A model generated the notes under the pieces. That model was not told the DNA's origin. It saw only the letters and a program-made list of their open reading frames with translations, and searched no databases. The position numbers and the translations under genes are program-made. This document shows positions 6,492 to 34,211 of a stretch of DNA of 34,211 nt, piece by piece. This DNA is from Pseudomonadota bacterium. GTDB lineage: Bacteria; Pseudomonadota; Alphaproteobacteria; UBA8366; GCA-2717185. The stretch is taken from positions 1-34,211 of the forward strand of contig JAQCHR010000002.1 in the NCBI GenBank assembly GCA_027619655.1, in the 5' to 3' direction. Positions within the stretch are counted from its first letter, which is position 1. Every line of letters starts with the position of its first letter.

Positions 6492-8324
6492 CTACAGCGA
6501 ATAGAACCAGGGCGCGAACAGGCTGAACACGATCCACAGCAGCCCGACGAGAGGCAAGCCGACCTTTACGAAATCGATGAACCGGTACCCGGCCGGCCCC
6601 ATGACCAGCAGGTTGGTCTGGTAACCCACCGGCGAGGCGAAGGAGCAGTTCGCCGCGAACACGACGGCAACGGCAAACGGCTCGACCGGCGCGCCAATTG
6701 CCTTGGCGACACCGACCGCAATTGGTGTGAACAGGACCGCCGTCGCCTTGGTGCTGAGCACATTGGAGAGCAGCGCCACCAGCAGGAAGAATACGGACAG
6801 GACAATCGGTACCGAAGAGTGCCCGACGACGGCCAGCATTGTCTCCGCCATGAAATCGGCGCCGCCGGTTTCCTGCATGGCCGCGCCGAGGGCCAGGGCT
6901 GACGCGATCAGCATGACAAGCTGCCGGTCCAGCGCGCGCATGGCATCACGAACCCGCAATACGCCGGTTGCGACCATCGCGACCGCCCCCTTCAATGCGC
7001 CGACGGAAATCGGTATCAATCCGGTCGCCGCGGATGCCACGACGGCCAGAAAGATCAGCCCCGCCGGCACAGCATGATGGATTGCCGGAATTTCCTCCGC
7101 TGACCATTCCAGCAGCAGCGTATCGTGATCTCCGCGCAACTTGCGGATATCGCGCAACTGGCCCTGAACAAGGAGCGTATCGCCTGCTTCGATACGAATT
7201 TCGGTCAGCCGCTGCCGCAGCAGGCGGCCCCGGCGCTGGATCCCGACGACAATACAGTGATGGCGGTAGCGGAAGCCGAATTCCTCCAGCGTGCGACCGG
7301 TCATGGCCGATCCCGGCGGCACCATGACATCGGCAACCACCTGCCCACCGATCAGCCAGCGTTCCGGCGATTCGACCTGGTCTTCGAGCCGCGGATGCAT
7401 TGCCGCCGGGTCGGCTTTCATGGCCTCGACCAGGGAATCGCGGGTCGCCGCGACGACAATGACGTCTTCATCCTGCAACTGGACCTGCCGGAACGGGGAC
7501 ACGAAGGCGTGCTCACCCCGCTGCACCATCAGAACCCGCATTTCCGACAGGCTGTCCAACTTGCCTTCGGTAAATTCCGCCCCGACAAGGGCGGATTTCG
7601 GCGTAATCGTAATCTGCGCAATAAACTGCCGGTTATCCTACGCCAGACCTTCGGCAATGTCCTCGTTTTCGGGCAACAGGCGGGGTGCCACGAACAGAAG
7701 ATACAGCAAGCCGGCAATGGCGAGAACGATGCCCGGTATCGAGAAATCGAAGAATCCGAACGGCGCCTCGCCAAGCTGCACCAGGGCACTGGATACCAGA
7801 AGGTTCGTGGAAGACCCGATCAGCGTGGTCATGCCGCCCAGCATGGCCGCGAAACTGAGCGGCATCAGCAGGTGGCTGGGGCGTTTGCCCAGGCGTTTGG
7901 CAATCGCCTGCATGATAGGTATGAAAATGACGACGACGGGAATGTTGTTCATCAGCGCGCTAACGGCCAGGACCGTGGTCAACGCCATTGTTACCGTCAG
8001 CCAGGGGCTGCCCCGCCCGGCCGCGAGAACCATGGCGGCCCCCTTGTCGAGTGCGCCGGTCCGTTCCAGCCCATCGCCGATGACCAGCAGTCCCAGCACG
8101 GCAAACAGGGCCGGATTTGCGAACCCGGAGAGCAGCCGCACCGCATCCAGCCGGTTGTCGCCGTCAATCCCAGGTACAGGCATCAGGTGAAACAGGATCA
8201 TCAGGGCGCAAAGGACCCCGAGCGAGGTCACCTCCAGCGGCAGCTTTTCAGTCGCATAAAGAACCAGCGAGCTCACGATCAGGGTGAACACCGCCAGCAT
8301 CTGAATAGTTGCGATTTCCATCAT
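6492..8324 (-). pseudogene. Paralogous SLC13/DASS-type permease with TrkA-C domains, interrupted by one in-frame TAG (7638-7640)
   Basis: Track ORFs 7638..8324 (228 aa, membrane N-half) and 6492..7559 (355 aa, two TrkA-C repeats plus membrane C-half) are in the same reading frame. Reading through the TAG gives ...IAEGLA*DNRQFIAQITITPKSALVGAEFTEGKLDSLSEMRV..., which is colinear with the neighbouring paralogue (...SDMFQIADYITEVVVTEDSKVAG...). The total is 611 codons. AGGAAG lies immediately upstream of the ATG at 8324. Confidence 0.75.
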
Positions 8325-11826: not shown

Positions 11827-13260
11827 ATGTCCCCTGAGGACGCTTTATCGCCGCGCGCGGCCGCTTTGGCCCGGATCAGGCAGATCGTCGGCCCGAAAGG
11901 CTGGTACGACACACCGGCGGATATTGCGCCCTATCTCGCCGAACAGCGCGGCATGTTCCAGGGCGACTGCAAGCTTGTCGTACGCCCGGATACTGCGGCA
12001 GACGTGGCCGCTGTGGTGTCGGCCTGCGCCTCGGCTGGCATTGCTATTGTGCCGCAGGGCGGCAATACGGGCCTGGTCGGTGCGGGCATCCCTATGCAAG
12101 CAGATGCCGCCATCATTCTCAGCCTGGGTCGCATGAACCGGATTCGCGATATCGATCCGCTGAATGCCACGATCACCGTGGAGGCGGGCTGCATTCTCGC
12201 CAATATCCAGGCGGCCGCGGCGGCCGAAGACCGCCTGTTCCCATTGAGTCTCAGCGCCGAAGGCAGTTGCCAGATCGGCGGTAATCTTTCCACCAATGCA
12301 GGCGGCGTCAACGTGCTGCGTTACGGCAACGCCCGCGATCTGGTGCTGGGCCTCGAAGTCGTACTTCCGGACGGACGTATCTGGAACGGATTGAAACGGC
12401 TGCGCAAGGACAATACTGGCTATGACCTGAAACAAATGTATATCGGCGGCGAAGGGACCCTGGGCATCATCACGGCGGCTGTCTGCAAGCTGTACCCGCG
12501 CCCGAAGGATGTGCAGACCGCTTTTGTCGGGCTGCGCAACCTGGAGGCCTCGCTGGACCTGCTGGCGCGGGCACGGTCCGCCAGCGGCGACCGGGTGACC
12601 AGTTTCGAATTGATCTGCCATCGGTCCTTTGCCGCCGCCGTGGCGCATATTCCCGGCATCCGCGACCCGCTGACCCGGAAGTTCGACGATTACGCCCTGT
12701 TCGAACTGTCCGGCGCCAATGCGGATGGCGACATGGCCGAAGCCATGGAAACCCTGCTGTCCGAAGCACTGGCGGCCGGCGAAATCGACGATGCCGCCAT
12801 TGCCCAGTCCGACAGCCAGCGGGCGGATTTCTGGCGAATCCGCGACGCGGTGGTCGAATCCCAAAAATTTCTGGGCGGCAGCATCAAGCACGATATCTCG
12901 ATCGGGGTCAGCCGCGTACCGGCCTTCATCCGCCGCGCCAATGCCGCCGTGCTGGCACTGCTGCCGGGCGCTCGTCCGGTGCCGTTCGGGCATTGCGGCG
13001 ACGGCAATATCCATTACAATATCTCGCAACCGGTGGACATGGACCTGGAAACATTTCTGTCACACCGGGAAGCGGTCACGCGGAACGTATATGACATCGT
13101 GGTCGATATGGGCGGCTCCTTCAGCGCCGAACACGGCGTCGGACAGCTCAAGCTGCGCGAAATGGCGCGCTACAAGCAGCCGCTGGAACTCGCCATGATG
13201 CACCGGGTAAAATCGGCGCTCGACCCCGAGGGGATCATGAATCCGGGCAAGATGCTGTAG
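11827..13260 (+). CDS. FAD-linked oxidase (GlcD / D-2-hydroxyacid dehydrogenase-like)
   Basis: Track ORF 11791..13260. I moved the start to the ATG at 11827, which is preceded by GGAAGGAG. The PCMH-type FAD-binding region is VVRPDTAADVAAVVSACASAGIAIVPQGGNTGLVGAG. The C-terminal FAD-oxidase end is GSFSAEHGVGQLK...LDPEGIMNPGKML. Confidence 0.8.
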   Translation: MSPEDALSPRAAALARIRQIVGPKGWYDTPADIAPYLAEQRGMFQGDCKLVVRPDTAADVAAVVSACASAGIAIVPQGGNTGLVGAGIPMQADAAIILSLGRMNRIRDIDPLNATITVEAGCILANIQAAAAAEDRLFPLSLSAEGSCQIGGNLSTNAGGVNVLRYGNARDLVLGLEVVLPDGRIWNGLKRLRKDNTGYDLKQMYIGGEGTLGIITAAVCKLYPRPKDVQTAFVGLRNLEASLDLLARARSASGDRVTSFELICHRSFAAAVAHIPGIRDPLTRKFDDYALFELSGANADGDMAEAMETLLSEALAAGEIDDAAIAQSDSQRADFWRIRDAVVESQKFLGGSIKHDISIGVSRVPAFIRRANAAVLALLPGARPVPFGHCGDGNIHYNISQPVDMDLETFLSHREAVTRNVYDIVVDMGGSFSAEHGVGQLKLREMARYKQPLELAMMHRVKSALDPEGIMNPGKML

Positions 13261-20592: not shown

Positions 20593-20693
20593 GAACAGTT
20601 CATTTATCGAGCGGACACTAGGTTTTGCGGTGCAAACTTGTCAATCTGTGTGCCGCCATTGATAAATGCGACAACAAGAGGAAAGAAAACCAA
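20593..20693. promoter_or_regulatory. Divergent intergenic region with AT-rich inverted-repeat elements
   Basis: This ~100 bp lies between the TRAP-SBP gene and the 7-gene operon. ATTGATAAATG (20658-20668) has its reverse complement upstream as CATTTATC (20601-20608, 8/8). It also pairs with TTGTCAAT (20638-20645, 7/8 with ATTGATAA, spacer 12). Confidence 0.3.
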
Positions 20694-22043
20694 ATGGCAT
20701 CGACCGCTTTTGATTCCGAAATTTTCAAGGACCTGTTCGGCACCGAGGCGATGCGGCAGGTATTTTCCGACGAAGCACTACTGCAGAAATACCTGGATGT
20801 AGAAGCGGCCCTGGCCAAGGTGCAGGCGCGCCTGGGGATCATCCCGCAGAATGCCGCCGACGAAATCATCGCCAAGGCAAAATACGAAAACCTGGACATG
20901 GATCGCTACCGTGAGCGCGTAAGTCAGGTGTTCTACCCGATCCTGCCGCTGGTCGAGGGCCTTGTCGCGGCCTGTGACGACGGGTTGGGCGAATACTGCC
21001 ATTGGGGCACGACGACTCAGGATATCATGGACAGTGCCTATTCGATGCAGGTGCGCGAGGCGCTGGAAATCATCGACGCGGACCTCGCTGCGATCGCCGG
21101 ACTGCTGGCGAAACTGGCCCGGGAACACCGTGACACGGTAATGGCCGGACGCAGCCATCTGCAGCAGGCCCTGCCGGTGACGTTTGGCTACAAGGTGGCC
21201 GGATGGCTGTCGGGGATCGAGCGAAGCCGCCAGCGCCTGGCGGAACTGCGGCCTCGCGCGACCATGGCGCAGTTCAGCGGCGCAGCGGGAACGCTCGCGT
21301 CGCTCGGCAAGGATGGATTTGCCATACAGGACGGGGTCGCGGACGAACTGGGCCTGGAGCGGCCGGAGATCGCCTGGCACACCATGCGGGACACCGTGGC
21401 CGAGGTGATCACTTTCCTTGGCCTCCTGACCGGCACGCTCGGCAAGATCGGCACCGATGTCCTGATGCTGATGCAGACCGAGGTCGGTGAGGTCTTCGAG
21501 CCGTTCACTCCCGGCCGCGGCGCCAGCAGCACGATGCCGCAAAAGCGCAACCCCATTTCCTGTGAGTTGATGACCGTCGCCGCACGGGGAGTCCGGCAAT
21601 ACGTCGCAATGGTCCTCGACGGCATGCTGCAGGACCACGAGCGCGCCTCCGGCGGCTGGCATGTGGAATGGATGTCGATCCCGCAAGCCTTCATCCTGAC
21701 CGCCGGGTCGCTGCGCCAGGCGCGCGACATGCTGGACGGGCTGATCGTCGACAAGGACCGGATGCTGCGCAATCTTGAACTCACCAACGGTCTGATCGTG
21801 TCGGAAGCCGTGATGATGGGGCTGGCGCCGCATATCGGGCGGCAGGTGGCCCATGACCTGGTCTACGACGCCTGCCGGGACGCCGTGACGTCGAACCGGC
21901 AATTGTACGACGTGCTTGTGGAGATGCCGATAATAACGGAAAAACTGTCGCGGGACGATATCGCCGCGCTGTGCGATCCTGCAAACTATACCGGCTTGGC
22001 TGGTGAGATGGTTGACCGGCTGCTGGCCAGAACAGGACACTGA
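20694..22043 (+). CDS. Class-II fumarase/aspartase-superfamily lyase (3-carboxy-cis,cis-muconate cycloisomerase / adenylosuccinate lyase-like)
   Basis: Track ORF 20625..22043. I moved the start to the ATG at 20694, which is preceded by AGGAAAG. The superfamily signature GASSTMPQKRNP (GSSxMPxKxN) is present. The N-terminus FDSEIFKDLFGTEAMRQVFSDEALLQKYLDVEAALA is PcaB-like. Confidence 0.75.
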   Translation: MASTAFDSEIFKDLFGTEAMRQVFSDEALLQKYLDVEAALAKVQARLGIIPQNAADEIIAKAKYENLDMDRYRERVSQVFYPILPLVEGLVAACDDGLGEYCHWGTTTQDIMDSAYSMQVREALEIIDADLAAIAGLLAKLAREHRDTVMAGRSHLQQALPVTFGYKVAGWLSGIERSRQRLAELRPRATMAQFSGAAGTLASLGKDGFAIQDGVADELGLERPEIAWHTMRDTVAEVITFLGLLTGTLGKIGTDVLMLMQTEVGEVFEPFTPGRGASSTMPQKRNPISCELMTVAARGVRQYVAMVLDGMLQDHERASGGWHVEWMSIPQAFILTAGSLRQARDMLDGLIVDKDRMLRNLELTNGLIVSEAVMMGLAPHIGRQVAHDLVYDACRDAVTSNRQLYDVLVEMPIITEKLSRDDIAALCDPANYTGLAGEMVDRLLARTGH

Positions 22044-22057
22044 TGGGAGTAACCGCT

Positions 22058-22948
22058 ATGAAACTGGGCTTTGTCGGAACCGGCGCAATGGGGGCGCCGA
22101 TGTCGCAGCACCTGATCGAGCAGGGCCACGAACTCGTGGTCTACGACATCAATGCCGCCTCGATGCAGCCGATCCTGGATGCCGGGGCAACCGCGGCGCA
22201 ATCCCCGAAGGATGCGGCCGACCAGGCGGAGATTGTGTTCGTCAGCGTGCCGAACAACAACGCGGTTCGCACAGCCGTCCTGGGCGCTGACGGCGTTATC
22301 GCCGGCAGCAGGATCCGGCTCTATGTCAGCCTGTGCACCACCGGTTCGCCACTCGCGAAGGAAATCACGACCGCATTGGCGGCGAAATCGATCGTGACCG
22401 TGGAATCGCCGATCAGTGGCGGTCCGCCGGGCGCAGTCGCCGGCACGCTCTCTGTCATGGCCTCCGGCCCGGAAGACGCCTTCCGGGAAGTGGAGCCGAT
22501 GCTGCGCGCGTGGGGCAAGATCACCTATGCGGGGGGCGCACCCGGCGCGGCGCAGGTGCTGAAACTGGCCAACAATATCCTGTCGGCAACGGCGCTGGCC
22601 GCCACCGCCGAGGCCATCGTCATGGGCGTCAAGGGCGGCCTTGATCCCGCCGTCATGCTGCAGGCGATCAATGCCGGCAGCGGCCGCAACAGCGCCACAC
22701 TGGACAAGTTTCCGCGCGATGTCCTGACCCGCAATTTCCAGTATGGCGCGGCAATGGATATCCTGATGAAAGACACGGACCTGGCACTGGCGGAGGGTGA
22801 GGCGCTGGGCGTGGACATGAAGGTCTGCGATCAGGTCCGGAAAATGTTCCGCGCCGCCATCGACGCCGGCATGGGGAAACAGGATATCACCAGCATTGTG
22901 AAGTGCATCGAGCGGCAGGCCGGTGTCGAGATTCCGAAAGTTCGTTAG
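22058..22948 (+). CDS. NAD(P)-dependent oxidoreductase of the 3-hydroxyisobutyrate dehydrogenase (HIBADH) family
   Basis: Track ORF 22043..22948. The ATG at 22058 gives MKLGFVGTGAMGAPMSQHL (Rossmann GxGxxG). The catalytic-lysine region is GAAQVLKLANNIL. Confidence 0.8.
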   Translation: MKLGFVGTGAMGAPMSQHLIEQGHELVVYDINAASMQPILDAGATAAQSPKDAADQAEIVFVSVPNNNAVRTAVLGADGVIAGSRIRLYVSLCTTGSPLAKEITTALAAKSIVTVESPISGGPPGAVAGTLSVMASGPEDAFREVEPMLRAWGKITYAGGAPGAAQVLKLANNILSATALAATAEAIVMGVKGGLDPAVMLQAINAGSGRNSATLDKFPRDVLTRNFQYGAAMDILMKDTDLALAEGEALGVDMKVCDQVRKMFRAAIDAGMGKQDITSIVKCIERQAGVEIPKVR

Positions 22949-22958
22949 GCGTACGACG

Positions 22959-24332
22959 ATGGTTGCGGTTTCCGAACAGAACTTGAAACGCCTTGTCGAC
23001 AGCGAAAGCGGCACGATCAGCCGCGAAATCTTTGTCGATCAGGCGATTTTCGATCAGGAAATGGAACGCATATTCTCCCGCGCATGGCTGTTCGTCGGGC
23101 ATGAAGGCCTGATCCCCAACCCGGAGGATTTCTTCGCATCCCGGATGGGCCGGGATCCGGTGATCCTGACCCGCAACAAACAGGGCGAAATCCTTGTCTT
23201 TTTGAACAGCTGCACCCATCGCGGCATGAAGCTGTGCCGCTACGATCACGGCAACGCCCGCGCCTTCACCTGCCCCTATCATGGCTGGAGTTTTTCCACC
23301 AACCGCGACATCGTCGAGGAACCGGGCGAACTGGTCGGCGTGCCCCATTTCGATGCCGGTTACGGCGACAGGCTGGACCGCAAGCGCTGGGGGCTGGTGC
23401 GCTGCCCGAATGTCGTCGTTTACAAGGGCACGATCTGGGCCAATTGGGATACCGGCGCGCCGCCCTTCCTCGACTGGCTGGGCGACATGCGGCGCTACCT
23501 GGACTTTGCACTGGACCATCGCGACGGCCGCCCCGGCGGATCGGAGGTCATCGGCGGCGTGCAGAAATGGCGCGTGAAGACCAACTGGAAATTCGTCGCG
23601 GAAAATTTCGCCGGCGACATGTACCACGATATCAGCCACCGTTCGGTCGATACCGTGGGAATCGGCCCCGGCGGCAAGGGACGGCGTGACGCGCAGCGGC
23701 CCCGCCTCGCCATCGGCTTCAGCGATCTGGGGCATGGCGTGCTGGGCGAACTGCCGCATACGGTGGAACCGGCATATTCACCGACCTTCGCCAGCGATCC
23801 GGAGGTCGAGGCCTATTACCGCCGGATCTACGACGACAGGGTCCGCCATCTCGGCGACAGGCCGCGCGTCACCAATTCGGTTGGCACGATCTTTCCCAAT
23901 ATGTCCTTCCACAGCCGGCAACCGCGCACCATCCTGATCACCCATCCGATCAGCCCGACGGAAGTCGAACTCTGGCGGCTGTACCTGGTGGATGCGGATG
24001 CGCCGCAACCGGTCAAGGACGCGGCACGTCACTACTACCTGCGCTATTCCGGCCCCGGCGGCATGACCGAGGCCGACGACATGGAAAACTGGACCTATGC
24101 GAGCGAATCCAGCATCGGCAGCGTCGCCCGGCAACAGGATTTCAACTACCAGCTGGCACTCGGCCATGCCAGACCCGCGCCAGGACTGCGCGGCGCGGTG
24201 CAGAGCGGGACCTATTCGGAGGAAAACCAGCGGATTTTTTATCGCCGCTGGGCGCAATTCATGGCCGGCAAGGACTGGTCCGAACTGATGCCGGAAAGCG
24301 ATCCGGCGGAAGTGATCGCCAATGCAGGCTGA
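22959..24332 (+). CDS. Rieske non-haem-iron ring-hydroxylating oxygenase, alpha subunit
   Basis: Track ORF 22923..24332; I moved the start to the ATG at 22959. The Rieske [2Fe-2S] motif is CTHRGMKLCRYDHGNARAFTCPYHGWSF. The mononuclear-iron region is NWKFVAENFAGDMYHDISH. Confidence 0.85.
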   Translation: MVAVSEQNLKRLVDSESGTISREIFVDQAIFDQEMERIFSRAWLFVGHEGLIPNPEDFFASRMGRDPVILTRNKQGEILVFLNSCTHRGMKLCRYDHGNARAFTCPYHGWSFSTNRDIVEEPGELVGVPHFDAGYGDRLDRKRWGLVRCPNVVVYKGTIWANWDTGAPPFLDWLGDMRRYLDFALDHRDGRPGGSEVIGGVQKWRVKTNWKFVAENFAGDMYHDISHRSVDTVGIGPGGKGRRDAQRPRLAIGFSDLGHGVLGELPHTVEPAYSPTFASDPEVEAYYRRIYDDRVRHLGDRPRVTNSVGTIFPNMSFHSRQPRTILITHPISPTEVELWRLYLVDADAPQPVKDAARHYYLRYSGPGGMTEADDMENWTYASESSIGSVARQQDFNYQLALGHARPAPGLRGAVQSGTYSEENQRIFYRRWAQFMAGKDWSELMPESDPAEVIANAG

Positions 24333-24864
24333 TCAACTGGCGGCGCTGGAACGACTGCTGCTGCACCGGGACATCGAGGATGTCATGCATGCGGAAGCCG
24401 AACTGCTGGATGCCCGCCGCTTCGACGAATGGCTGACGATGCTCGCCCCCGATATCCGCTACTGGATGCCGATGATGCGGAACGTGCATTCCGCCCACGG
24501 AGCAGACGAGTTCACGCATGAACAGGCCGATGCCAACTGGATGGATGAGGGGCTGAAAACCCTGACCCAGCGGGTCCGGCAGCTTGCCACCGGCATTCAC
24601 TGGGCGGAGGAGCCGGTTTCCCGGACCACCCATATGGTCAGCAACGTCCGGTTGCTGGCTGTGCGGGCCGGCACGCCCCGCGAAGTAGACACATCCTGTC
24701 GCTTTCTGATCTACCGGAACCGGCAGCAGGACGAAGCCGATACGTTCATCGGCAAACGGCTTGATACGCTACGCCAGACAGATACCGGCTGGAAGATCGC
24801 CCGGCGTGAAATCCGGCTGGACCAGAACGTGCTGCTGGCAAAAAATCTGACAACATTTTTCTAG
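24322..24864 (+). CDS. Ring-hydroxylating oxygenase beta subunit (NTF2/SnoaL-like fold)
   Basis: 180 aa, overlapping the alpha gene by 11 nt. LLHRDIEDVMHAEAELLDARRFDEWLTMLAPDIRYWMP is the typical beta-subunit N-terminal pattern. Confidence 0.8.
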   Translation: MQADQLAALERLLLHRDIEDVMHAEAELLDARRFDEWLTMLAPDIRYWMPMMRNVHSAHGADEFTHEQADANWMDEGLKTLTQRVRQLATGIHWAEEPVSRTTHMVSNVRLLAVRAGTPREVDTSCRFLIYRNRQQDEADTFIGKRLDTLRQTDTGWKIARREIRLDQNVLLAKNLTTFF

Positions 24865-24876
24865 AAAGAGATTTCG

Positions 24877-25383
24877 ATGGTTTATGAAAGCAAGGAAATC
24901 GCCCCGCAACGCTATCGCGAGGAAATCGGTCGATACTACGAGGACTTCACCGTTGGCGATGTTTACGAACACCGCCCGGGTCGGACGATCACCGAGGCGG
25001 ATAACAGCTGGTTCACCCTGTTGACGATGAATACCCACCCGTTGCATTTCGATGCGGAATACGCGGCCAAAAGCGAGTTCGGCAAGCCGCTGGTCAACAG
25101 CGCCCTGACCCTGGCGATTGTCGCCGGAATGAGCGTCAGCGACACCAGCCAGAAGGCCATTGCCAATCTGGGTTGGAACGACATCAAACTGACTGCTCCG
25201 GTGTTCAACGGCGACACCATCTACGCCGAAAGCGAGGTGCTGGAGAAACGCGAATCCTCCTCCCGCCCGACGCAGGGTATTGTCACGATCAAGACAATCG
25301 GTAAGAAGGCCGACGGCACGGTCTTCATGTCCTACGTACGGACCATGCTGATCCCGAAGCGCGGCCACGGCATCGACATCTAG
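24877..25383 (+). CDS. MaoC-like (hotdog-fold) acyl-CoA hydratase/dehydratase
   Basis: 168 aa. FTVGDVYEHRPGRTITEADNSWFTLLTMNTHPLHFDAEYA is the MaoC dehydratase pattern, as in mesaconyl-/itaconyl-CoA hydratase-type enzymes. Confidence 0.75.
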   Translation: MVYESKEIAPQRYREEIGRYYEDFTVGDVYEHRPGRTITEADNSWFTLLTMNTHPLHFDAEYAAKSEFGKPLVNSALTLAIVAGMSVSDTSQKAIANLGWNDIKLTAPVFNGDTIYAESEVLEKRESSSRPTQGIVTIKTIGKKADGTVFMSYVRTMLIPKRGHGIDI

Positions 25384-25414
25384 CCAGACCCGAAGAAGAA
25401 ACGGAGCACAAGCC

Positions 25415-26575
25415 ATGCCGGATCCGGCAAAGAGCAACGACGACGAACGGATGATCCTCGATAGCGTCGAACAGTTCCTCGAACGCGACGTCAAACCCTA
25501 CGCCATGCATCTGGAGCATGAGGATATCTGGCCGGAAGACATCGTCGGCAAGATGGCCGAACTCGGTCTGTTCGGGTCGATCATCCATGAGGAGTATGGC
25601 GGGCTCGGCCTGTCCTGCAGTACCTATGCGAAGATCGTTGAAGTGGTCAGCCGCGAATGGATGTCCCTGTCGGGTATCTTCAATTCGCATCTCATCATGG
25701 CCTCCTGTGTGCAGCGCAACGGCACCGATGCGCAGAAACGCAAATGGCTGCCGAAATTCGCATCGGGCGAAATCCGCGGTGGGCTGGCGCTTACCGAACC
25801 CAATTGCGGCACCGACCTGCAGGCGATCCGCACCCGCGCCGACCGCGACGGCGACGGTTACCGCATCAATGGTACGAAAACCTGGATTTCCAACGGTATC
25901 CACGGTCATTGCTTTGCGGTCATGGTGAAGACAGACCTGAACGCCGAACCGCGCCACAAGGGCGTCAGTGTCTTCCTGGTCGAAAAGGGCGAAGGCTTCC
26001 GACCGTCCCGCAAGCTGGAGAAACTCGGCTACAAGGGCATCGATTCCGCCGAACTGCTGTTCGAGAACTGCCATGTGCCGGCGGAAAACCTGATCGGTGG
26101 CGTCGAGGGACAGGGCTTCCGGCACATCATGGGCGGGCTGGAACTGGGCCGGATCAATGTCGCGGCGCGCGGTGTCGGCGTCTCGCAGGCCGCGCTGGAC
26201 GAATCCGTGAAATATTCCCAGCAGCGCGAAACCTTCGGTAAGCCCATCGCCGAGCATCAGGCGATCCAGCTCATGCTCGCCGATATGGTGACAAGGACCG
26301 AGGCCGCCCGGCTGCTGGTCTACCGGGCCGCCGACGCCTTCGACCGGGGCGAGCGCTGCGACATGGAGGCCGGGATGGCGAAGCTGTTCGCCACCGAAGC
26401 CGCCGTCACCAATTCGATGGACGCGCTGCGGGTCCATGGCGGCTACGGCTATTCCAAGGAATTCCCCGTCGAACGTTACTACCGGGACGCCCCGCTTCTG
26501 ACCATCGGCGAGGGCACCAACGAATTGCAGCGTATCATCATCGCGCGGCAGCTCATCGCCCGTAACCCCATCTAG
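25415..26575 (+). CDS. Acyl-CoA dehydrogenase (standard approx. 385-aa form)
   Basis: 386 aa. Motifs are GGLALTEPNCGTDLQAI, KTWISNG, RVHGGYGYSKEFPVERYYRDAPLLTIGEGTNELQR. Confidence 0.85.
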   Translation: MPDPAKSNDDERMILDSVEQFLERDVKPYAMHLEHEDIWPEDIVGKMAELGLFGSIIHEEYGGLGLSCSTYAKIVEVVSREWMSLSGIFNSHLIMASCVQRNGTDAQKRKWLPKFASGEIRGGLALTEPNCGTDLQAIRTRADRDGDGYRINGTKTWISNGIHGHCFAVMVKTDLNAEPRHKGVSVFLVEKGEGFRPSRKLEKLGYKGIDSAELLFENCHVPAENLIGGVEGQGFRHIMGGLELGRINVAARGVGVSQAALDESVKYSQQRETFGKPIAEHQAIQLMLADMVTRTEAARLLVYRAADAFDRGERCDMEAGMAKLFATEAAVTNSMDALRVHGGYGYSKEFPVERYYRDAPLLTIGEGTNELQRIIIARQLIARNPI

Positions 26576-26586
26576 GAGGCCGAGGA

Positions 26587-27783
26587 ATGTTACCGCTGGC
26601 AGGCGTGCGGGTGCTCGCCGTTGAACAATATGGCGCGGGCCCCTGGGGCACGCAGTACATGGCCGACATGGGTGCCGAGGTCATCAAGATCGAGAACCCG
26701 AAGGATGGCGGCGACATGAGCCGCAGTGTGGGGCCGTTCTTCATCGATAATGGCGAAAGCAGTTCCGGCAGCCTGTTCTTCCAGAGCATCAACCGCAACA
26801 AGCGCAGCCTGACGCTGGACCTCGGCACGCCGGAAGGGCAAGCGGTGCTGCACGACCTCGTGCCGACCGCTGATGTGCTGGCCTGCAACCTGCGCGGCGA
26901 CGTACCGGAAAAGCTGGGGCTCACCTATGAGACACTGGGTAAGCTCAACCCGCAGATCGTCTGCGCCTTTCTCACGGCCTATGGCCGCGAGGGGCCGCGC
27001 CAGAAATGGCCGGGCTATGACTACCTGATGCAGGCGGAGGCGGGCTATTTCTCGCTGACCGGCGAACCGGAAGGCAACCCGACACGCATGGGCCTGTCCA
27101 TCGTCGACCTGATGACCGGCCTGGGCATGGCCTATACCGCCATATCCGCTGTCCTCGCCGCGCGTGCGACGGGGTTGGGGCGCAATGTCGATGTGAACCT
27201 GTTCGACCTGGCGATGACAAACCTGTCCTATCCCGGCACCTGGTACCTGAACACCGGCCATAACCAGGGACGCGAGCCACGGTCCGGCCACCCGGCCCTG
27301 ACGCCCTGCGCGCAATACAAGACGAAGGACGGCTGGGTTTTCCTGATGTGCAACAAGGAGAAATTCTGGCCGGCCCTGTGCAACGCCATCGGGCGGCCCG
27401 AATGGGGAAGCGACCCGCGCTACCTGACCTTCAAGGACCGGCTGGAGCGCCGCCCGGGAATCCAGGACATGCTGGACGAACAGCTTTCAACGAAGACGAC
27501 CGGGGAATGGCTCAAAATCTTCGCCGGGACGGTCCCCGCAGCGCCGATTCTCGACGTGGCCCAGGCGCTGGAAAACCCGTATGTCACCGGCAATGGCAAG
27601 ATCCAGACGTTGCAGCACCAGAGCGGCCGTGAATTCCGGATGCTCGATGCACCATTCCACGCAGGCGAAGCGACCCCGAACCGGCCGGGCCCGGAACTGG
27701 GCCAGGATACAGATGCGCTGCTGGGAGAACTGGACTACGACGCGCAGAAAATCGCGAAACTGAAGGACGCCAAAATCGTCTGA
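26587..27783 (+). CDS. Family-III (CaiB/BaiF) CoA-transferase
   Basis: 398 aa with AGGAGG upstream. The N-terminus is LAGVRVLAVEQYGAGPWGTQYMADMGAEVIKIENP. The catalytic-Asp context is GLSIVDLMTG. Confidence 0.85.
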   Translation: MLPLAGVRVLAVEQYGAGPWGTQYMADMGAEVIKIENPKDGGDMSRSVGPFFIDNGESSSGSLFFQSINRNKRSLTLDLGTPEGQAVLHDLVPTADVLACNLRGDVPEKLGLTYETLGKLNPQIVCAFLTAYGREGPRQKWPGYDYLMQAEAGYFSLTGEPEGNPTRMGLSIVDLMTGLGMAYTAISAVLAARATGLGRNVDVNLFDLAMTNLSYPGTWYLNTGHNQGREPRSGHPALTPCAQYKTKDGWVFLMCNKEKFWPALCNAIGRPEWGSDPRYLTFKDRLERRPGIQDMLDEQLSTKTTGEWLKIFAGTVPAAPILDVAQALENPYVTGNGKIQTLQHQSGREFRMLDAPFHAGEATPNRPGPELGQDTDALLGELDYDAQKIAKLKDAKIV

Positions 27784-27795
27784 TCGGCGACTCGA

Positions 27796-28584
27796 TTACA
27801 AGGTGGCAAGAAACGCCCACACTTCGGCATTCACGGCACCGGGAAACTCCCAGAACGGAAAACCGCCGCCATCTTTGATCGTCATACGGCGGCAGTCGGG
27901 CAACAGTGCCGAAATCTCGTCAGCGGCCTGAAGGAAATCTGGCAGGTCGTACGCCCCGTTCATGATCAGCACCGGTTTCCGGAACTGGCGCAGGTCATCG
28001 TCCGGCGGCGTTATGGGACCGATAAGCCCGGCGTCCAGCCACGGTGCGCCCTCAAATTCCTCTATGATCTGACGCTGCGCGGCGGCGCGACATTCCTCCG
28101 GCCGATCCCGCATTACGGCGAACCAGCCGCCCTCCTCCCACCAGCGTTTCCGGGCCGCCGCCATGCCCTCATTCCGGGCTGTATCGGCAACCCGGGCCAG
28201 AACATCCGACACTCCCGGCATGGATCGTCCCGGAAAAACCGGTCCTTCGAGAACAAGCGCGGAGAACCGGTCCGGATCATGGACGGCCAGCAACAATCCC
28301 GCCGCCGCGCCGAGATGCGTTCCCCAGAAGACGGCATCCCCGGCACCGGCATCCCGCATCGCGCCGGCGATGCTTTCGGCATATTCCGCGACGCCATAAG
28401 GGCCCGGCATGGCGGACGACAGGCCGTGGCCCGGCAGGTCGATCAACATTAGTCGGTGCGTCGCGCCAAAAACCGGAATCTGCGCTGAAAACGCGCGCCG
28501 GTTCTGTGAAACGCCGTGCACGATGACGAGCCAAGGCGCCTTCGGACCCGCCGTGTCAATGATTTCGAACGCCGCCGCTGGCAT
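27796..28584 (-). CDS. Alpha/beta-hydrolase-fold protein with a non-canonical catalytic triad
   Basis: 262 aa. The fold pattern is WLVIVHGVSQN...LIDLPGHGLS...AVFWGTHLGAAAGLLLAVHDPDRFSALVLEGP. The nucleophile elbow reads G-T-H-L-G (28309-28323) instead of G-x-S-x-G. The start is 6 nt after the ppd stop. Confidence 0.7.
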   Translation of the reverse strand: MPAAAFEIIDTAGPKAPWLVIVHGVSQNRRAFSAQIPVFGATHRLMLIDLPGHGLSSAMPGPYGVAEYAESIAGAMRDAGAGDAVFWGTHLGAAAGLLLAVHDPDRFSALVLEGPVFPGRSMPGVSDVLARVADTARNEGMAAARKRWWEEGGWFAVMRDRPEECRAAAQRQIIEEFEGAPWLDAGLIGPITPPDDDLRQFRKPVLIMNGAYDLPDFLQAADEISALLPDCRRMTIKDGGGFPFWEFPGAVNAEVWAFLATL

Positions 28585-28590
28585 GCCGCG

Positions 28591-29733
28591 TCAGGCTGTC
28601 GAAGCAAGGAAAGCCTTGAAGCGCCGCGCCACCGCATCGGGTGACACGGTCGGACGGCCCAGCTTTTCGAGGCTGCCCGGCTGGATGCGGATATGCACCA
28701 TATGCGGGCCATCGCTCGCGCAGGCCGCCTTCAGGGCCTTTTCGAAGCCACCCAGATCGTCTGCGGAAGCCGCGCTGGCATAGCCGCAGGCCAGCGCGAT
28801 CCTGGCAAAGTCCACGCCGCCGGATACGGTCGCCTGCCCGCCCGTGGAATCATGCACCCCGTTATCGACCAGCACGTGGATCAGGTTCCGGGGCTCCTGC
28901 GCGCCGATGGTCGCCATGTTGCCCATCTTCATCAGGGCGGCGCCATCACCGTCGATCACGACGATGGGCCGGTCCACATTGACGGCGATCCCAAGGCCCA
29001 TTGCGCTGGCGCTGCCCATGGAACCGACCTGGTAGATATGCTGTTTGCGGTCATCGATGGTGAACAGTTCGCGCCCGCTCTTGCCGGTGGTGCAGACGAT
29101 TCCCGCGTTGTCCGGCGTCACCTTGAGCAACCGCTCCAGCGTGTCGCAACGGGTCGGGCGATCGCCGCCTGTCGTATAGTCGTTCAGGTTGTCGCCCGGC
29201 GTCGCCAGCGCCGGCGTTTCCTCCAGCCCCTCCGGCGCCACCGACCCGTTCGCCATGATGAAGGCGTAGGGCAGTTCCGCTGAATCCATATGCGCAAATG
29301 CCCGGTCCAGCGCCGGCGCGATATCCGCGTCCTCGCTGGGGAACGGTTCGTTGGGCACGCCGATATCGTTCAGCAGGACATCGGTAATCTGCCCCATCAG
29401 CACATGCTGCGGTTCGTCCTTCAGCCCCGGCTGACCGCGCCAGGTGACGATCATCAGGGTCGGGATCCTGAACGGATGATTCAGCGAGGTGAGCGGGTTG
29501 ATAGCGTTGCCGAGCCCCGAATTCTGGCAGATCAGCACCGTCTTGCGTCCCGCCAGCCAGGCGCCGGCGGCGATTGCCGTCGCCTCGCCCTCGCTTGCCG
29601 CCGGGACATAGCGGATATCCTTGCGGGTGATGACGCGGTTAATGACCGGCGTCAGGAACGAGCACGGCACGCCCGTATAGAAATCGTACCCGGCGGCCAG
29701 TGCCTGGTCGAGAAACGCATCGGCCTTGATCAT
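28591..29733 (-). CDS. ppd: Phosphonopyruvate decarboxylase (fused ThDP enzyme, sulfopyruvate/phosphonopyruvate decarboxylase family)
   Basis: Track ORF 28591..29784. I place the start at the ATG at 29733, which overlaps the upstream stop (ATGA). The N-terminus is [29 protein letters not shown]. The ThDP-binding motif is [39 protein letters not shown]. It lies immediately downstream of pepM. Confidence 0.85.
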
Positions 29734-31391
29734 ACGATGTTCCTCGCCCGGGCGAGGTCCAGCGCGTCGTCGATATCCAGCCACTGGCCGGTGATGTACT
29801 GCACCCGGATAGCATGTCCCGCCGTAACCAGCCTGTTCAGCAGGACCGGCACGTCGCCCTTTTCAAGGCTGCCATCGGCTTCCATCGCCGCCAGTTCGGC
29901 AGCGACGGCTTTGGCGCCTGCCTCGCTCAGCTTCAGCAGCCCGACCCATTCACCGGTCGCCGCGTCAGCGCCGACATCGCGACCCGCGGCCACAAGGCTG
30001 ACCGGCGCATCGTCCAGGTAGTCGGTGGAAAACGCGCGGTCGCCGACCACGAGATCGCGGACAAGCCCTGCTTCGGACTGTTCGCGATCCTGCCACAACG
30101 CATCGGCGACGATGACGATGTCGCCTTCCGCCTTGAGCAGCGCATCGAGCATGTAGTCGCGGAACAGGATGTCGCCATAGGATACCAGCGTCGGCTGGTT
30201 CAGCGCCTTGCGCGCGCAATTCAGCGAGTAGAGCTCGCCCGTTTCCGCGTAGCGGTCATTGTCGACGGTCGCGACGGAGACAAGGTCGATGGCTTCCTTC
30301 TTATAGCCGCGCACGATCGTGACATCGCGGATGCCGGCGCCGTTCAGCATGGACAGCTGGCGGCGCAGCACGGGCTGCCCCCTTACATCGACCATGCATT
30401 TCGGGCGATCGTCAGTCAGGGCGCCCAATCGTTTGCCGCGCGATGCCGCCAGCACAACCGCGCCGTAACCCGCGCCCCGCTTTGGCAAATAGCGCGCCTC
30501 GGCCGCCGCCAGTTCGTCATTGCCGGTGATCTTGAAGACCTCACCCACCGTCGGGATGGTATCTTCCACATCGGCGAGGGTTTCGGTGTGGAAGATCGTT
30601 TCGCTGATATGCCGCATCGCCTGCATTGCGGCGCGCATGTTGTGATTGGCCCAGATGACCAGCGAAATATCGTGGTCGCGGAATTGCTGGGTCGGCGTCG
30701 CGTAATACATGGTCGGCACGATCACGACCGGGCAGCGGTTGCCCCACTCCTTGCAGAAGGCAAAGATTTCATCCGGTTCCGCGATCTTGGAATGAATCAG
30801 GACGGCATCGGCGCCGGCGGCATGATACGCCTCGCCGCGGCGCAGCGCCTCATCCACGCCCCAGCCGGCGATCAGTGCCTCGATCCGGGCGATGACGCAG
30901 AAATCATCGTCAAGCTGGCTGTCCTTTCCGGCCTTGATCTTGCCGCAGAACTCGTCGATATCCGCCAGCGGCTGCGCCCGGCCGATAAAGCTGTTTGTCT
31001 TGGGGAACAGCTTGTCCTCGATACAGACGGCGGCGATGCCGCGCTGCGACAACTTGGTCACCAGCCGGCGCATGTTATTGAAATTGCCGTATCCCGTATC
31101 GCCATCGACCAGGATGGGGATCGACGTCGAATCGGACATGAACTCCAGCACTTCCAGGACCTGGGTCCAGGATGCTTCATTATTGTCGCGAACACCCAGC
31201 GCGGCGGAAATACTGAGCCCCGAAGCCCAGACTCCCTTGAAGCCGACCTCCTCCACGATCCGCGCGGACAGGCCGTTATGGGCCTCCATGATAAAGGCCA
31301 TTTCCGGGTCGGTGAGAAGCTGGCGGAAGCGGCTGGTTTTGGATTGCGGCGGCTGCGCGGGTGGCACGATTCGAACAGTATTTGCAGTCAT
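29730..31391 (-). CDS. pepM: Bifunctional phosphoenolpyruvate mutase (N-terminal ~300 aa) / LicC-PntC-type nucleotidyltransferase (C-terminal ~240 aa)
   Basis: 553 aa. The PepM hallmarks are [21 protein letters not shown] and [12 protein letters not shown] (EDK-X5-NS). The C-terminal domain has [23 protein letters not shown] (a G-x-G-x-R-L-like NTP loop) and ends [15 protein letters not shown], as in LicC-like cytidylyltransferases. Confidence 0.9.
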
Positions 31392-31501
31392 GGTCTAATA
31401 TCTGCTTTCCTAGAGTACCGGGAGGACGTCTCATCGAGATAATCACGCCCGGCAGTGTTAGATCTTGTGACAATAAATACGCGATCCCGGAGAAAATAAA
31501 A
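31392..31501. promoter_or_regulatory. Divergent promoter region between the pepM operon and the second CoA-transferase gene
   Basis: This 110-bp, comparatively AT-rich spacer lies between two divergent start codons. GGAG sits 11 nt upstream of the ATG at 31502. I recognise no specific operator. Confidence 0.3.
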
Positions 31502-32653
31502 ATGGCGCTTTCACATCTCAAGGTTCTCGACCTCACCTCGAATCTGTCCGGGCCGTATTGCGCCATGATCCTGGCGGATCAGGGCGCCGACGTCATCAAG
31601 ATCGAGCGCCCCGAGGTCGGCGATGACATGCGGCTGACGCCACCCTTTATCGGCGGCGAAAGTGCCCCGTTCATGCTGGCGAACCGGAACAAGCGCAGCG
31701 TCATCATCGACCTGAAAACCGCGGCCGGCGTGGCCGATTTCAAGCGGCTTGCGGCCAACGCCGATATCATGATCGAGAATTTCAAGCCCGGCACCGCGGA
31801 ACGCATTGGCATTGGTTACGAAACCATGCATGCCCTGAACCCGCGCCTGATCTACTGCTCGATCTCCGGCTTCGGGCAGACCGGCCCCTATGCGAAACGC
31901 GGCGGTTTCGACCTCATCAGCCAGGCGATGACCGGCCTTGCGGCAATCTGCGGCGACGAGGATGGTCCGCCGCACCGGTTGCCGATTCCCATTACCGACC
32001 TGTGTGCCGGCATGAATGGCGCAATCGGCATACTGACCGCCCTGGCCGCGCGGGAAAAAACCGGCAAAGGGCAACAGGTCGATATCTCGCTATTCGAATC
32101 GGGAATCTCACTTGGTTTCTATGAGGCCGCGTCATATTTCGCCACCGGCCAGGCGCCGGAGAAGCTGGGCCAGCGCCATCGCGGCAGCGCGCCTTACCAG
32201 ATATTCCCCACCGCCGATGGTCATATCGCCATCGGTGCGGCGGCGCAGCGGTTCTGGAGCCTGACCTGCGAGGTCCTGGATTGCGCGGAACTGATCGATG
32301 ACCCTCGCTTCGTCACCAAGGCGGACCGGGTGGCGAACAACAAGGCGCTGGTCGCCATTCTGGCAGAAAGGCTGGTCACGAAAACGACCATGGAATGGTT
32401 CCGATTGCTTGACGCCAGGGGAATTCCCGCCGGCCCCGTCATGAACCATGCGGAACTGTTTGCCGACCCGCAGACGGAAGCGCGCAACATGGTTGTCGAT
32501 ATCGATCACCCGGCGGCGGGCGCAACCCGCGTTTTGGGCACGCCCATCAAACTGTCGGGTACGCCGGGCGGGGTCAAACGGCCTGCGCCGCGGCATGGCG
32601 AACATACGAGCGAAATTCTGGGGGATTCGCCGTCAACAGCGGCAGCGGATTAA
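31502..32653 (+). CDS. Family-III (CaiB/BaiF) CoA-transferase, second copy (distant paralogue)
   Basis: Track ORF 31361..32653; I moved the start to the ATG at 31502. The N-terminus is LKVLDLTSNLSGPYCAMILADQGADVIKIERP. The catalytic-Asp context is PIPITDLCAG. Confidence 0.85.
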   Translation: MALSHLKVLDLTSNLSGPYCAMILADQGADVIKIERPEVGDDMRLTPPFIGGESAPFMLANRNKRSVIIDLKTAAGVADFKRLAANADIMIENFKPGTAERIGIGYETMHALNPRLIYCSISGFGQTGPYAKRGGFDLISQAMTGLAAICGDEDGPPHRLPIPITDLCAGMNGAIGILTALAAREKTGKGQQVDISLFESGISLGFYEAASYFATGQAPEKLGQRHRGSAPYQIFPTADGHIAIGAAAQRFWSLTCEVLDCAELIDDPRFVTKADRVANNKALVAILAERLVTKTTMEWFRLLDARGIPAGPVMNHAELFADPQTEARNMVVDIDHPAAGATRVLGTPIKLSGTPGGVKRPAPRHGEHTSEILGDSPSTAAAD

Positions 32654-33653: not shown

Positions 33654-34211
33654 TCAGACCGAACGCAGGTTAGGCCCGGACCCGTCACTTTTATCCTGGC
33701 TGTCCTCAGCCTGGAACTCGCCGTCGTCGCCCGGTTGATCCGAAACCGTGGGAAGCATGCTCTCGGCTTCGCGCTTCAGGCGCATGTAGGAGCGAACGGA
33801 GAACGGAAATGTCGAGAGATAAACCACAGCCACCCCGGTCAGAACGATCCAGGGAAACGCGGCAAGCCCGGCCAGGGTCAACCCGACGGTAACGAGGAAT
33901 GGCAGGACATAGCGCTGCGGCACCCGGATCCGTTTGAACGAATAGGACGGCATCCGGCTGACCATCAGCGCCGCCATGATCGCTACCCAGGTTCCTGTTA
34001 CAACCGGATGCATGGTCCATGCCGCATCGAAGCCAAGCGCGATGACAAGCGGCAGCAATGACATCAGTGCCCCCGCGGGCGCCGGGACGCCGGTAAAATA
34101 GTTGAATGCATAGGGCGGCATCTTGTCATGCATGCTGTTGAAGCGGGCAAGCCGCAGGGCGCAACACACGATGAAGAAAAGGACAATAGCCCAGCCGACC
34201 CCCCCCGCGCT
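33654..34211 (-). CDS. pssA: CDP-diacylglycerol--serine O-phosphatidyltransferase, C-terminal part (5' end beyond the right edge)
   Basis: The frame is open to the window edge. CCALRLARFNSMHDKMPPYAFNYFTGVPAPAGALMSLLPL, followed by several hydrophobic spans, matches the C-terminal half of alphaproteobacterial PssA (CDP-alcohol phosphatidyltransferase family). Confidence 0.7.
   Translation of the reverse strand, partial: SAGGVGWAIVLFFIVCCALRLARFNSMHDKMPPYAFNYFTGVPAPAGALMSLLPLVIALGFDAAWTMHPVVTGTWVAIMAALMVSRMPSYSFKRIRVPQRYVLPFLVTVGLTLAGLAAFPWIVLTGVAVVYLSTFPFSVRSYMRLKREAESMLPTVSDQPGDDGEFQAEDSQDKSDGSGPNLRSV

Follow-up and report, generated by a model that had tools for sequence, protein, structure and literature searches.

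A predicted phosphonate-synthesis module of pepM-nucleotidyltransferase and ppd, followed by an inserted alpha/beta-fold gene, in an alphaproteobacterial contig

Layout and identity of the three genes

Contig JAQCHR010000002.1 of the Pseudomonadota bacterium assembly GCA_027619655.1 carries three consecutive minus-strand genes, the first two of which are predicted to open a phosphonate biosynthesis pathway. They lie in a stretch of 34,211 nt, referred to here as the window, whose numbering is used for all coordinates (Table 1). Gene 1 encodes a phosphoenolpyruvate (PEP) mutase fused to a LicC/PntC-like nucleotidyltransferase (NT), hereafter PepM-NT. Gene 2 (ppd) encodes a thiamine diphosphate (ThDP)-dependent phosphonopyruvate decarboxylase, and gene 3 an alpha/beta-fold protein, hereafter ABH.

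The original prediction, made from the letters of this DNA, described three tightly packed genes on this strand. The open reading frames (ORFs), the ATGA shared by the pepM stop and the ppd start (29733-29730), and the 6-nt gap (CGCGGC) between the ppd TGA and the ABH ATG are all as it had reported. The ATGA overlap suggests that pepM-NT and ppd may be translationally coupled. No terminator-like site was found on the minus strand within the three-gene stretch, and the promoter and terminator scans remained at chance level. The sigma-70-like match upstream of pepM is a consensus match only, as the match count equals the shuffle expectation. With neither tRNA genes nor Rfam matches in the window, and with these scans at chance, a mobile-element or riboswitch context was rejected.

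Table 1. Coordinates of the three genes and of the main surrounding features in the window
Feature	Position	Strand	Details
Gene 1, PEP mutase fused to LicC/PntC-like nucleotidyltransferase (PepM-NT)	29730-31391	-	553 aa
PepM domain of gene 1	~30516-31328	-	PF13714 7e-63
NT domain of gene 1	~29733-30461	-	PF12804 8e-14
Gene 2, ppd, ThDP-dependent phosphonopyruvate decarboxylase	28591-29733	-	380 aa from ATG
Gene 3, alpha/beta-fold protein (ABH)	27796-28584	-	262 aa
Intergenic region between pepM and the divergent upstream CoA-transferase gene	31392-31521	.	One sigma-70-like match, minus strand, 31521-31493
Family III CoA-transferase, divergent from pepM	31502-32653	+	PF02515 3.7e-135; called start ~31502, 383 aa
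Family III CoA-transferase, last gene of the convergent catabolic operon	26587-27783	+	
Convergent catabolic operon	20625-27783	+	PurB/PcaB-like lyase, HIBADH-like reductase, Rieske oxygenase alpha/beta, mesaconyl-CoA-hydratase-like MaoC, acyl-CoA dehydrogenase, CoA-transferase
pssA, phosphatidylserine synthase, cut by the window end	33654-34211	-	PF08009; psd beyond; psd-pssA at L001:6127-7738

Gene 1 scores 384.7 bits against the PEP_mutase equivalog TIGR02320 (cut-off 319.55), while the next-best model, phosphonopyruvate hydrolase, reaches 242 bits, below its own cut-off of 374. The catalytic motif EDK-x5-NS distinguishes PepM from the rest of the isocitrate-lyase superfamily. It occupies residues 125-134 of gene 1 (codons 30990-31019), and both EDKxxxxxNS and D(G/A)DTGYG are kept in 86/86 relatives of the fusion. 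By family membership, the PepM domain is predicted to convert PEP to phosphonopyruvate.

The fused domain matches PF12804 (NTP_transf_3) over residues 311-429, with 52.5 bits (cut-off 27). Its best solved relative is LicC of S. pneumoniae (1JYK, 1.4e-13), and it also matches Tde-PntC, the T. denticola PntC/AEPT fusion, in which AEPT stands for 2-aminoethylphosphonate aminotransferase (6PD1, 5.5e-7). The nucleotide-binding signature reads LAASRGKRL instead of the usual LAAGxGxRL. Nine Ppm-fused clade members, reaching down to 38% identity, all share LAAS(R/Q)G, which is therefore best regarded as a conserved variant and not as decay; the longer NT motif LAASRGxxLGxLTxxxPK is conserved across the clade.

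Gene 2 reaches 433.4 bits against the phosphonopyruvate decarboxylase model TIGR03297 (cut-off 312.5) and holds fused TPP_enzyme_N (PF02776) and TPP_enzyme_C (PF02775) domains. Its translation contains GVPCSFLTP and a GDG...N-type ThDP motif ending in VDNG. Family membership assigns to Ppd the predicted conversion of phosphonopyruvate to phosphonoacetaldehyde (PnAA). All the motifs quoted in the original prediction (PEP-mutase hallmarks, EDK-x5-NS, GVPCSFLTP and the ThDP motif) are present in the translations, and the profile searches that it had proposed agree on the gene identities (TIGR02320, PF12804, TIGR03297). The locus has a second public assembly (L001), in which the 3' end of ppd is interrupted by an N-run and junk sequence at 12700-12800, so that ppd is called there at 365 aa. 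An apparent 18-aa ppd insertion in that assembly was rejected as an N-run scaffold artefact. The ppd sequence of the window is clean and agrees with that of a close relative, L082 (contig JBBDQU010000074.1 of GCA_040905865.1).

Recurrence and linkage across related loci

A set of 86 loci with PepM-NT relatives was compared, of which 80 were contributed by a metagenome scan (52-76% identity). Flanks were examined over at most 10 kb, L001 reaching 10 kb beyond the end of the window. In loci with sufficient sequence, the gene directly 3' of the fusion is usually ppd; 16 of the 86 loci have at least 1.5 kb of downstream sequence and no adjacent ppd. By tblastn, ABH was found 3' of ppd in four of the 86 loci only, namely L001, L082, L084 and L085, the last three having PepM identities to the window of 95%, 91% and 87%, respectively. 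These three relatives share the order psd-pssA, response regulator, CoA-transferase, pepM-NT, ppd, ABH, CoA-transferase, acyl-CoA dehydrogenase and MaoC. A more distant locus, L087 (PepM 78%), has the same flanks, with ppd directly abutting the convergent CoA-transferase gene and no ABH. In L094 (PepM 75%), pepM-ppd abuts the ortholog of the other CoA-transferase, which indicates that the pair moves as a unit.

The search was also run from the side of ABH. Its relatives were located in about 30 GTDB species-representative genomes (43-61% identity), where neither pepM nor ppd was found nearby and ORF clustering detected no conserved neighbours. A separate census of ABH neighbours, which gave no common theme, is weak, as its ORF picker, based on GC content at third codon positions (GC3), can take the antisense strand; it agrees with the clustering and with gene calls. 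Two further ABH contigs (62-63% identity) place the gene beside translation genes or transposases, not pepM/ppd. From these two-way locus searches, pepM-NT plus ppd is the recurrent unit, and ABH was inserted within a single narrow lineage. The three genes had been presented as a single cassette, which might recur in other genomes. Such a cassette is confined to one syntenic lineage (4/86), is absent at the same position in L087, and appears in 0/30 GTDB ABH loci and 0/2 of the further ABH contigs.

Selection was estimated from pairwise Nei-Gojobori ratios of nonsynonymous to synonymous substitution rates (dN/dS) among the syntenic loci, with dS from 0.4 to more than 2. The values are 0.06-0.12 for pepM-NT, 0.04-0.17 for ppd, and 0.08-0.18 for ABH (dS 0.75-2.6). 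All three genes are under purifying selection, which is somewhat more relaxed for ABH. A relic or pseudogene cassette is rejected by these ratios, and pepM and ppd, at 0.04-0.17 with dS above 1, are taken to be functional.

Two kinds of relatives depart from this arrangement. In L092 (2409-5396) and L093 (3080-6067), a PepM-NT of 75% identity is directly followed by a class III aminotransferase gene, which replaces ppd; these loci may represent a phosphonoalanine-type or otherwise different branch, and aminotransferases outside the PhnW type may thus play a part. On a 4.6-Mb contig (L088:4077-9662), a PepM-NT of 72% identity is encoded last in what looks like an operon with phaC and the genes of a mesaconyl-CoA-isomerase-like CoA-transferase and of a hydratase, with no ppd within 8 kb.

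The genes expected after ppd were searched for with a PhnW query identical to PDB 1M32 (tblastn, E<1e-3), which detects PhnW-type AEPT only, and by scanning all long window ORFs with coding-like GC3. No PhnW-type AEPT was detected in the window, L001, L082, L084, L085 or L087, and the only class V-like gene in the window is the housekeeping serC, which passes TIGR01365. Iron alcohol dehydrogenase (Fe-ADH, PF00465) was found neither among the scanned window ORFs nor in the gene calls of the same five loci. LicD had no match among the scanned window ORFs, the cluster holds no dedicated LicD- or CDP-alcohol-type transferase, and the 10 kb past the window end in L001 contain no phosphonate-related genes. 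The original prediction had stated that no amination, reduction or transfer gene was linked. This stands for AEPT, Fe-ADH and a dedicated transferase; it had overlooked pssA, the sole CDP-alcohol transferase in view. It had also named, as a finding that would speak against it, a transaminase or alcohol dehydrogenase plus a transferase just outside the window, and the 10 kb checked in L001 show none.

The psd-pssA pair, which all syntenic relatives retain, is found 2.3 kb upstream of pepM and belongs to the housekeeping phosphatidylserine pathway. The full-length pssA ortholog of L082 scores 111.2 against TIGR00473 (cut-off 107), and the gene next to it 356.9 against the psd model (cut-off 315). 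As pssA passes its equivalog cut-off and sits with psd, it was rejected as a phosphonate transferase and probably has nothing to do with the phosphonate genes.

Across the whole set, AEPT was detected in 24/86 loci by PhnW tblastn, usually about 1.2 kb past the pepM end, i.e., directly after ppd. Full flanks (at least 4 kb upstream and at least 5 kb downstream) are available for 25 loci. Among these, AEPT is linked in 5/7 loci with a PepM identity of 57-70%, in 5/12 at 50-57%, and in 0/6 at 70% or above, the subclade of the window; overall, 15/25 have no linked PhnW-type AEPT. A neighbour-joining tree of the fusion proteins, which is rough and carries no support values, groups the window subclade with L096/L097 as an AEPT-less group nested among AEPT-linked branches. 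This nesting means that AEPT linkage was lost, and had not been missing from the outset.

Sister clades, by contrast, do carry a dedicated transferase. Representative ORFs of L125 and L139, when scanned, place ORF clusters 69 and 71 in the CDP-OH_P_transf family. Cluster 69 adjoins pepM in L124, L125, L158 and L169, and cluster 71 does so in L135, L139, L148 and L154. A linked AEPT is present in 6/8 of these loci, the exceptions being the L125 and L135 contigs, on which none was found. LPG_synthase_TM, MMPL and epimerase genes occur in other sister loci. Judged by gene content, the sister loci display the full scheme to be expected of a phosphonolipid or surface-tailoring pathway, of which the window has the first half only.

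The alpha/beta-fold protein

Gene 3 matches PF00561 (Abhydrolase_1) with 63.3 bits (3.6e-17), and no specific curated model was reached in NCBIfam. The family counts at least 264 homologs at E<1e-10. It is widespread in Alphaproteobacteria, some Beta- and Gammaproteobacteria and SAR324 metagenome-assembled genomes (MAGs), mostly as a stand-alone gene.

Canonical alpha/beta serine hydrolases have a Ser (or Cys/Asp) nucleophile in a G-x-Nu-x-G elbow and a triad His after the last strand. Gene 3 shows neither, as its elbow is G-T-H-L-G and GGF replaces GH. Alignment by hidden Markov model to MenH and other solved relatives shows that, at the canonical positions, His stands in place of Ser and Phe in place of His. 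The nucleophile-elbow position is His90 (codon 28315-28317), in WGTHLG, and Phe takes the place of the triad His in GGFPFWE, which reads GGFP(L/F)WE across the family alignment. In an alignment of 20 sequences, with a mean column identity of 65%, T89, H90 and G92 of the WGTHxG elbow are invariant, G88 is kept in at least 90%, and several Arg, Trp and Cys residues of the cap are invariant as well. Moreover, (G/A)(T/S)HxG is found in 116 of the 120 best ABH homologs. What had been described as a degenerate triad is, given the elbow His in these 116/120 homologs, a conserved non-canonical site.

The AlphaFold (AF2) model of ABH has a pLDDT of 92.8, and its Foldseek neighbours are generic small esterases, enol-lactonase, MenH and RutD, at a TM of about 0.8 and 20-24% identity. 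PDB sequence and fold searches were rejected as a functional lead, since they return only these generic esterase, enol-lactonase, MenH and RutD folds. ABH shares with the PcaD, MenH, RutD and BioH hydrolases the fold and cap (TM 0.80-0.84), the HG oxyanion motif and the DLPGHG motif, but it differs from them in having His for the nucleophile Ser and Phe for the triad His. Literature searches found no usable report of a His-elbow alpha/beta hydrolase and no description of a GTHxG family. Whatever its link to phosphonates, this family of more than 260 close homologs represents an unexplored active-site solution.

The closest ABH in a GTDB representative (L002:1-3269, 59% identity) lies on the same strand, 3' of genes for a PrpB-like lyase of the isocitrate-lyase superfamily and LeuC/LeuD-like hydratase subunits. 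This is a second, independent adjacency of the ABH family to a PEP-mutase-superfamily gene, and a single case. From the Arg/Trp-rich conserved cap and this one context, a small anionic molecule or acid is a reasonable guess for the ABH substrate.

Pathway reading, competing explanations and flanking genes

The preferred reading, to which a probability of about 0.6 is given, is that the module makes phosphonoacetaldehyde, and that unlinked genes complete 2-aminoethylphosphonate (2-AEP) and attach it. The PepM domain would rearrange PEP to phosphonopyruvate, and the coupled Ppd would decarboxylate the latter to phosphonoacetaldehyde, thereby pulling the unfavourable PepM equilibrium forward. A transaminase encoded elsewhere would then convert phosphonoacetaldehyde to 2-AEP; a PhnW-type enzyme is proposed because sister clades have such an AEPT directly after ppd. 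The fused LicC/PntC-like domain would use CTP to turn 2-AEP into CMP-AEP, by analogy with sister clades and with work on PntC (PMC6697681). Finally, an unlinked transferase would move the phosphonate onto a lipid or glycan, a step proposed because sister clades encode CDP-alcohol-phosphatidyltransferase-family proteins beside pepM. ABH is a recent arrival in the stretch from ppd to the convergent CoA-transferase gene, confined to a single narrow lineage, and is kept by selection. It is probably co-transcribed with ppd, and it is not a general part of phosphonate synthesis.

Published surveys place such a locus in a familiar setting. The domain most often fused to Ppm is PF12804, which some 33% of Ppm enzymes carry, and a nucleotidyltransferase is encoded in about two-thirds of clusters (PMC6697681). 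Among the RefSeq ppm neighbourhoods analysed by Li and Horsman (2022), 83% have ppd and 56% have AEPT (PMC8942020). About 13% lack all seven known branch-point enzymes and mostly fall under ‘post-Ppd other’, and promiscuous enzymes encoded elsewhere have been proposed for other phosphonate clusters (PMC8942020). The window locus belongs to this recognised ‘post-Ppd other’ class (PMC8942020), with which it shares Ppm and Ppd and the absence of all seven branch-point enzymes (Li and Horsman 2022, PMC8942020). It differs in that no gene cluster family named in the main text of that paper matches the window flanks or includes the ABH family, and the particular flank composition was not found described in the literature. 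The arrangement, which had been put forward as unusual, is therefore not so, given the share of PF12804 fusions, the branch-point-free neighbourhoods and the 15/25 loci without linked AEPT in the present sample. Of the two alternatives offered with it, dependence on unlinked genes is better supported than an undescribed route.

Of the closest known systems, the phosphonyl-tailoring (Pnt) pathway (Rice et al. 2019, PMC6697681) has the same PEP_mutase plus NTP_transf_3 architecture with an adjacent ppd, and the same course from PnAA through AEP and CMP-AEP to a cell-surface lipid or glycan may be expected. However, the window locus has no linked AEPT or transferase, and its fused NT carries LAASRG and not LAAGxGxRL; moreover, the characterised enzymes are the stand-alone Ari-PntC and the AEPT-fused Tde-PntC. 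Canonical pepM-ppd-aepT clusters (e.g., L116, L144 and L150) have orthologous first two enzymes in the same order (PepM 52-66%), but their third gene encodes a PhnW-type class V aminotransferase, whereas this slot holds ABH in the window and is empty in L087. Fom1, from fosfomycin biosynthesis, likewise joins PepM to a nucleotidyltransferase, which serves to activate a phosphonate further down the pathway. It differs by its reversed domain order (N-terminal CyTase), its PF01467 family, its 2-hydroxyethylphosphonate (HEP) substrate and the many further enzymes of its cluster.

Several points weigh against the unlinked-gene reading. No unlinked AEPT or transferase was seen, the search having reached over the window plus 10 kb, in a lineage that is absent from the scanned genome collection. 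AEP as the substrate of the LAASRG-type, Ppm-fused PF12804 subgroup would be an extrapolation from related enzymes. The close relatives L088 and L092/L093 have no ppd nearby, so that pathways in the clade may vary more than assumed. Lastly, ABH fills the exact slot of the sister-clade AEPT; in four lineages it lies 6-14 nt from ppd, and it evolves under purifying selection. A functional partner would also show such a placement.

This last point leads to the alternative that ABH is a true pathway enzyme in the post-Ppd slot, acting on phosphonoacetaldehyde or on the CMP-activated phosphonate in an AEPT-free route. One possibility would be a covalent phosphono-histidine intermediate on His90, followed by phosphonyl transfer or release. 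Besides the position directly after ppd, the short gap without a terminator-like site and a dN/dS of 0.08-0.18 over a dS of 0.75-2.6, the conserved non-canonical active site with its invariant cap Arg, Trp and Cys residues fits this idea, as does the L002 family member in an operon with a different PEP-mutase/isocitrate-lyase-superfamily enzyme. Nevertheless, L087 and L094 retain pepM-ppd under selection with neither ABH nor AEPT, more than 30 other ABH members sit in unrelated, non-conserved contexts without pepM/ppd, the fold search returns generic esterase-like neighbours only, and no precedent was found for the proposed His chemistry, which makes this explanation unlikely. Unlikely as well is the fuller claim that the GTHxG ABH is a new kind of phosphonate enzyme replacing the post-Ppd aminotransferase, the three genes then making an undescribed product. 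For example, the elbow His might attack the phosphorus of a CMP-activated phosphonate, or unknown chemistry might take place on phosphonoacetaldehyde.

A route to HEP is an improbable explanation too. Here, phosphonoacetaldehyde would be reduced to HEP by an enzyme that is unlinked or generic, and the fused NT would turn HEP into CMP-HEP; a candidate reductase is the flanking HIBADH-like beta-hydroxyacid dehydrogenase (22043-22948). No AEPT is linked in the clade of the window, and this reductase, 5 kb away, is related to sulfolactaldehyde and tartronate-semialdehyde reductases. However, it is encoded on the other strand, in a different operon, and a DAO-family gene stands in its place in L087. 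Fom1 provides a precedent for a PepM-fused cytidylyltransferase acting on HEP (PMC6697681), but its nucleotidyltransferase belongs to a different family (PF01467), and the assayed PntC enzymes of the PF12804 family prefer AEP (PMC6697681). HEP is considered under-counted in marine sequence data (PMC8942020), but the wider clade was ancestrally AEPT-linked. A literature search returned nothing usable on endogenous PnAA reduction in heterologous hosts.

It is very improbable that the phosphonate genes act with the flanking CoA-transferase, acyl-CoA dehydrogenase and MaoC genes, e.g., on a phosphonate-bearing acyl-CoA: pepM-NT does adjoin family III CoA-transferases and MaoC-like hydratases in the window lineage, and on the same strand in L088, but the CoA-transferase of L088 shares only 28% identity with either copy in the window and is not an ortholog, the flanking genes of the window are encoded on the other strand, the flanks are rearranged in L094 without regard to pepM-ppd, and such genes were not seen in the other 70-odd loci.

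If the module does depend on unlinked genes for 2-AEP synthesis and attachment, it adds one environmental alphaproteobacterial case in which the downstream genes of the commonest PepM architecture are unlinked, and linked-gene counts would under-estimate complete AEP pathways in MAGs. A whole clade has kept pepM-ppd under strong selection after the loss of the linked aminotransferase. How often phosphonate producers draw on scattered or shared genes, possibly including a catabolic phnW, could be read from a complete genome of the clade.

As for the surroundings, the CoA-transferase gene divergent from pepM is outside the phosphonate module, and the convergent operon looks like an uncharacterised organic-acid catabolic pathway, as far as gene content tells; in L087, a DAO-family oxidoreductase gene replaces its Rieske and HIBADH genes. 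The window further contains housekeeping genes (serA, serC, folK, folP, an isopropylmalate-dehydrogenase-like gene and a Sua5-like gene) and transporters. Among the latter, a CitMHS/TrkA_C gene is apparently split into 6492-7559 and 7638-8324 (minus strand; 355 and 228 aa), perhaps owing to pseudogenisation, a frameshift or faulty assembly; an intact 591-aa paralog adjoins it at 4704-6479 on the plus strand.

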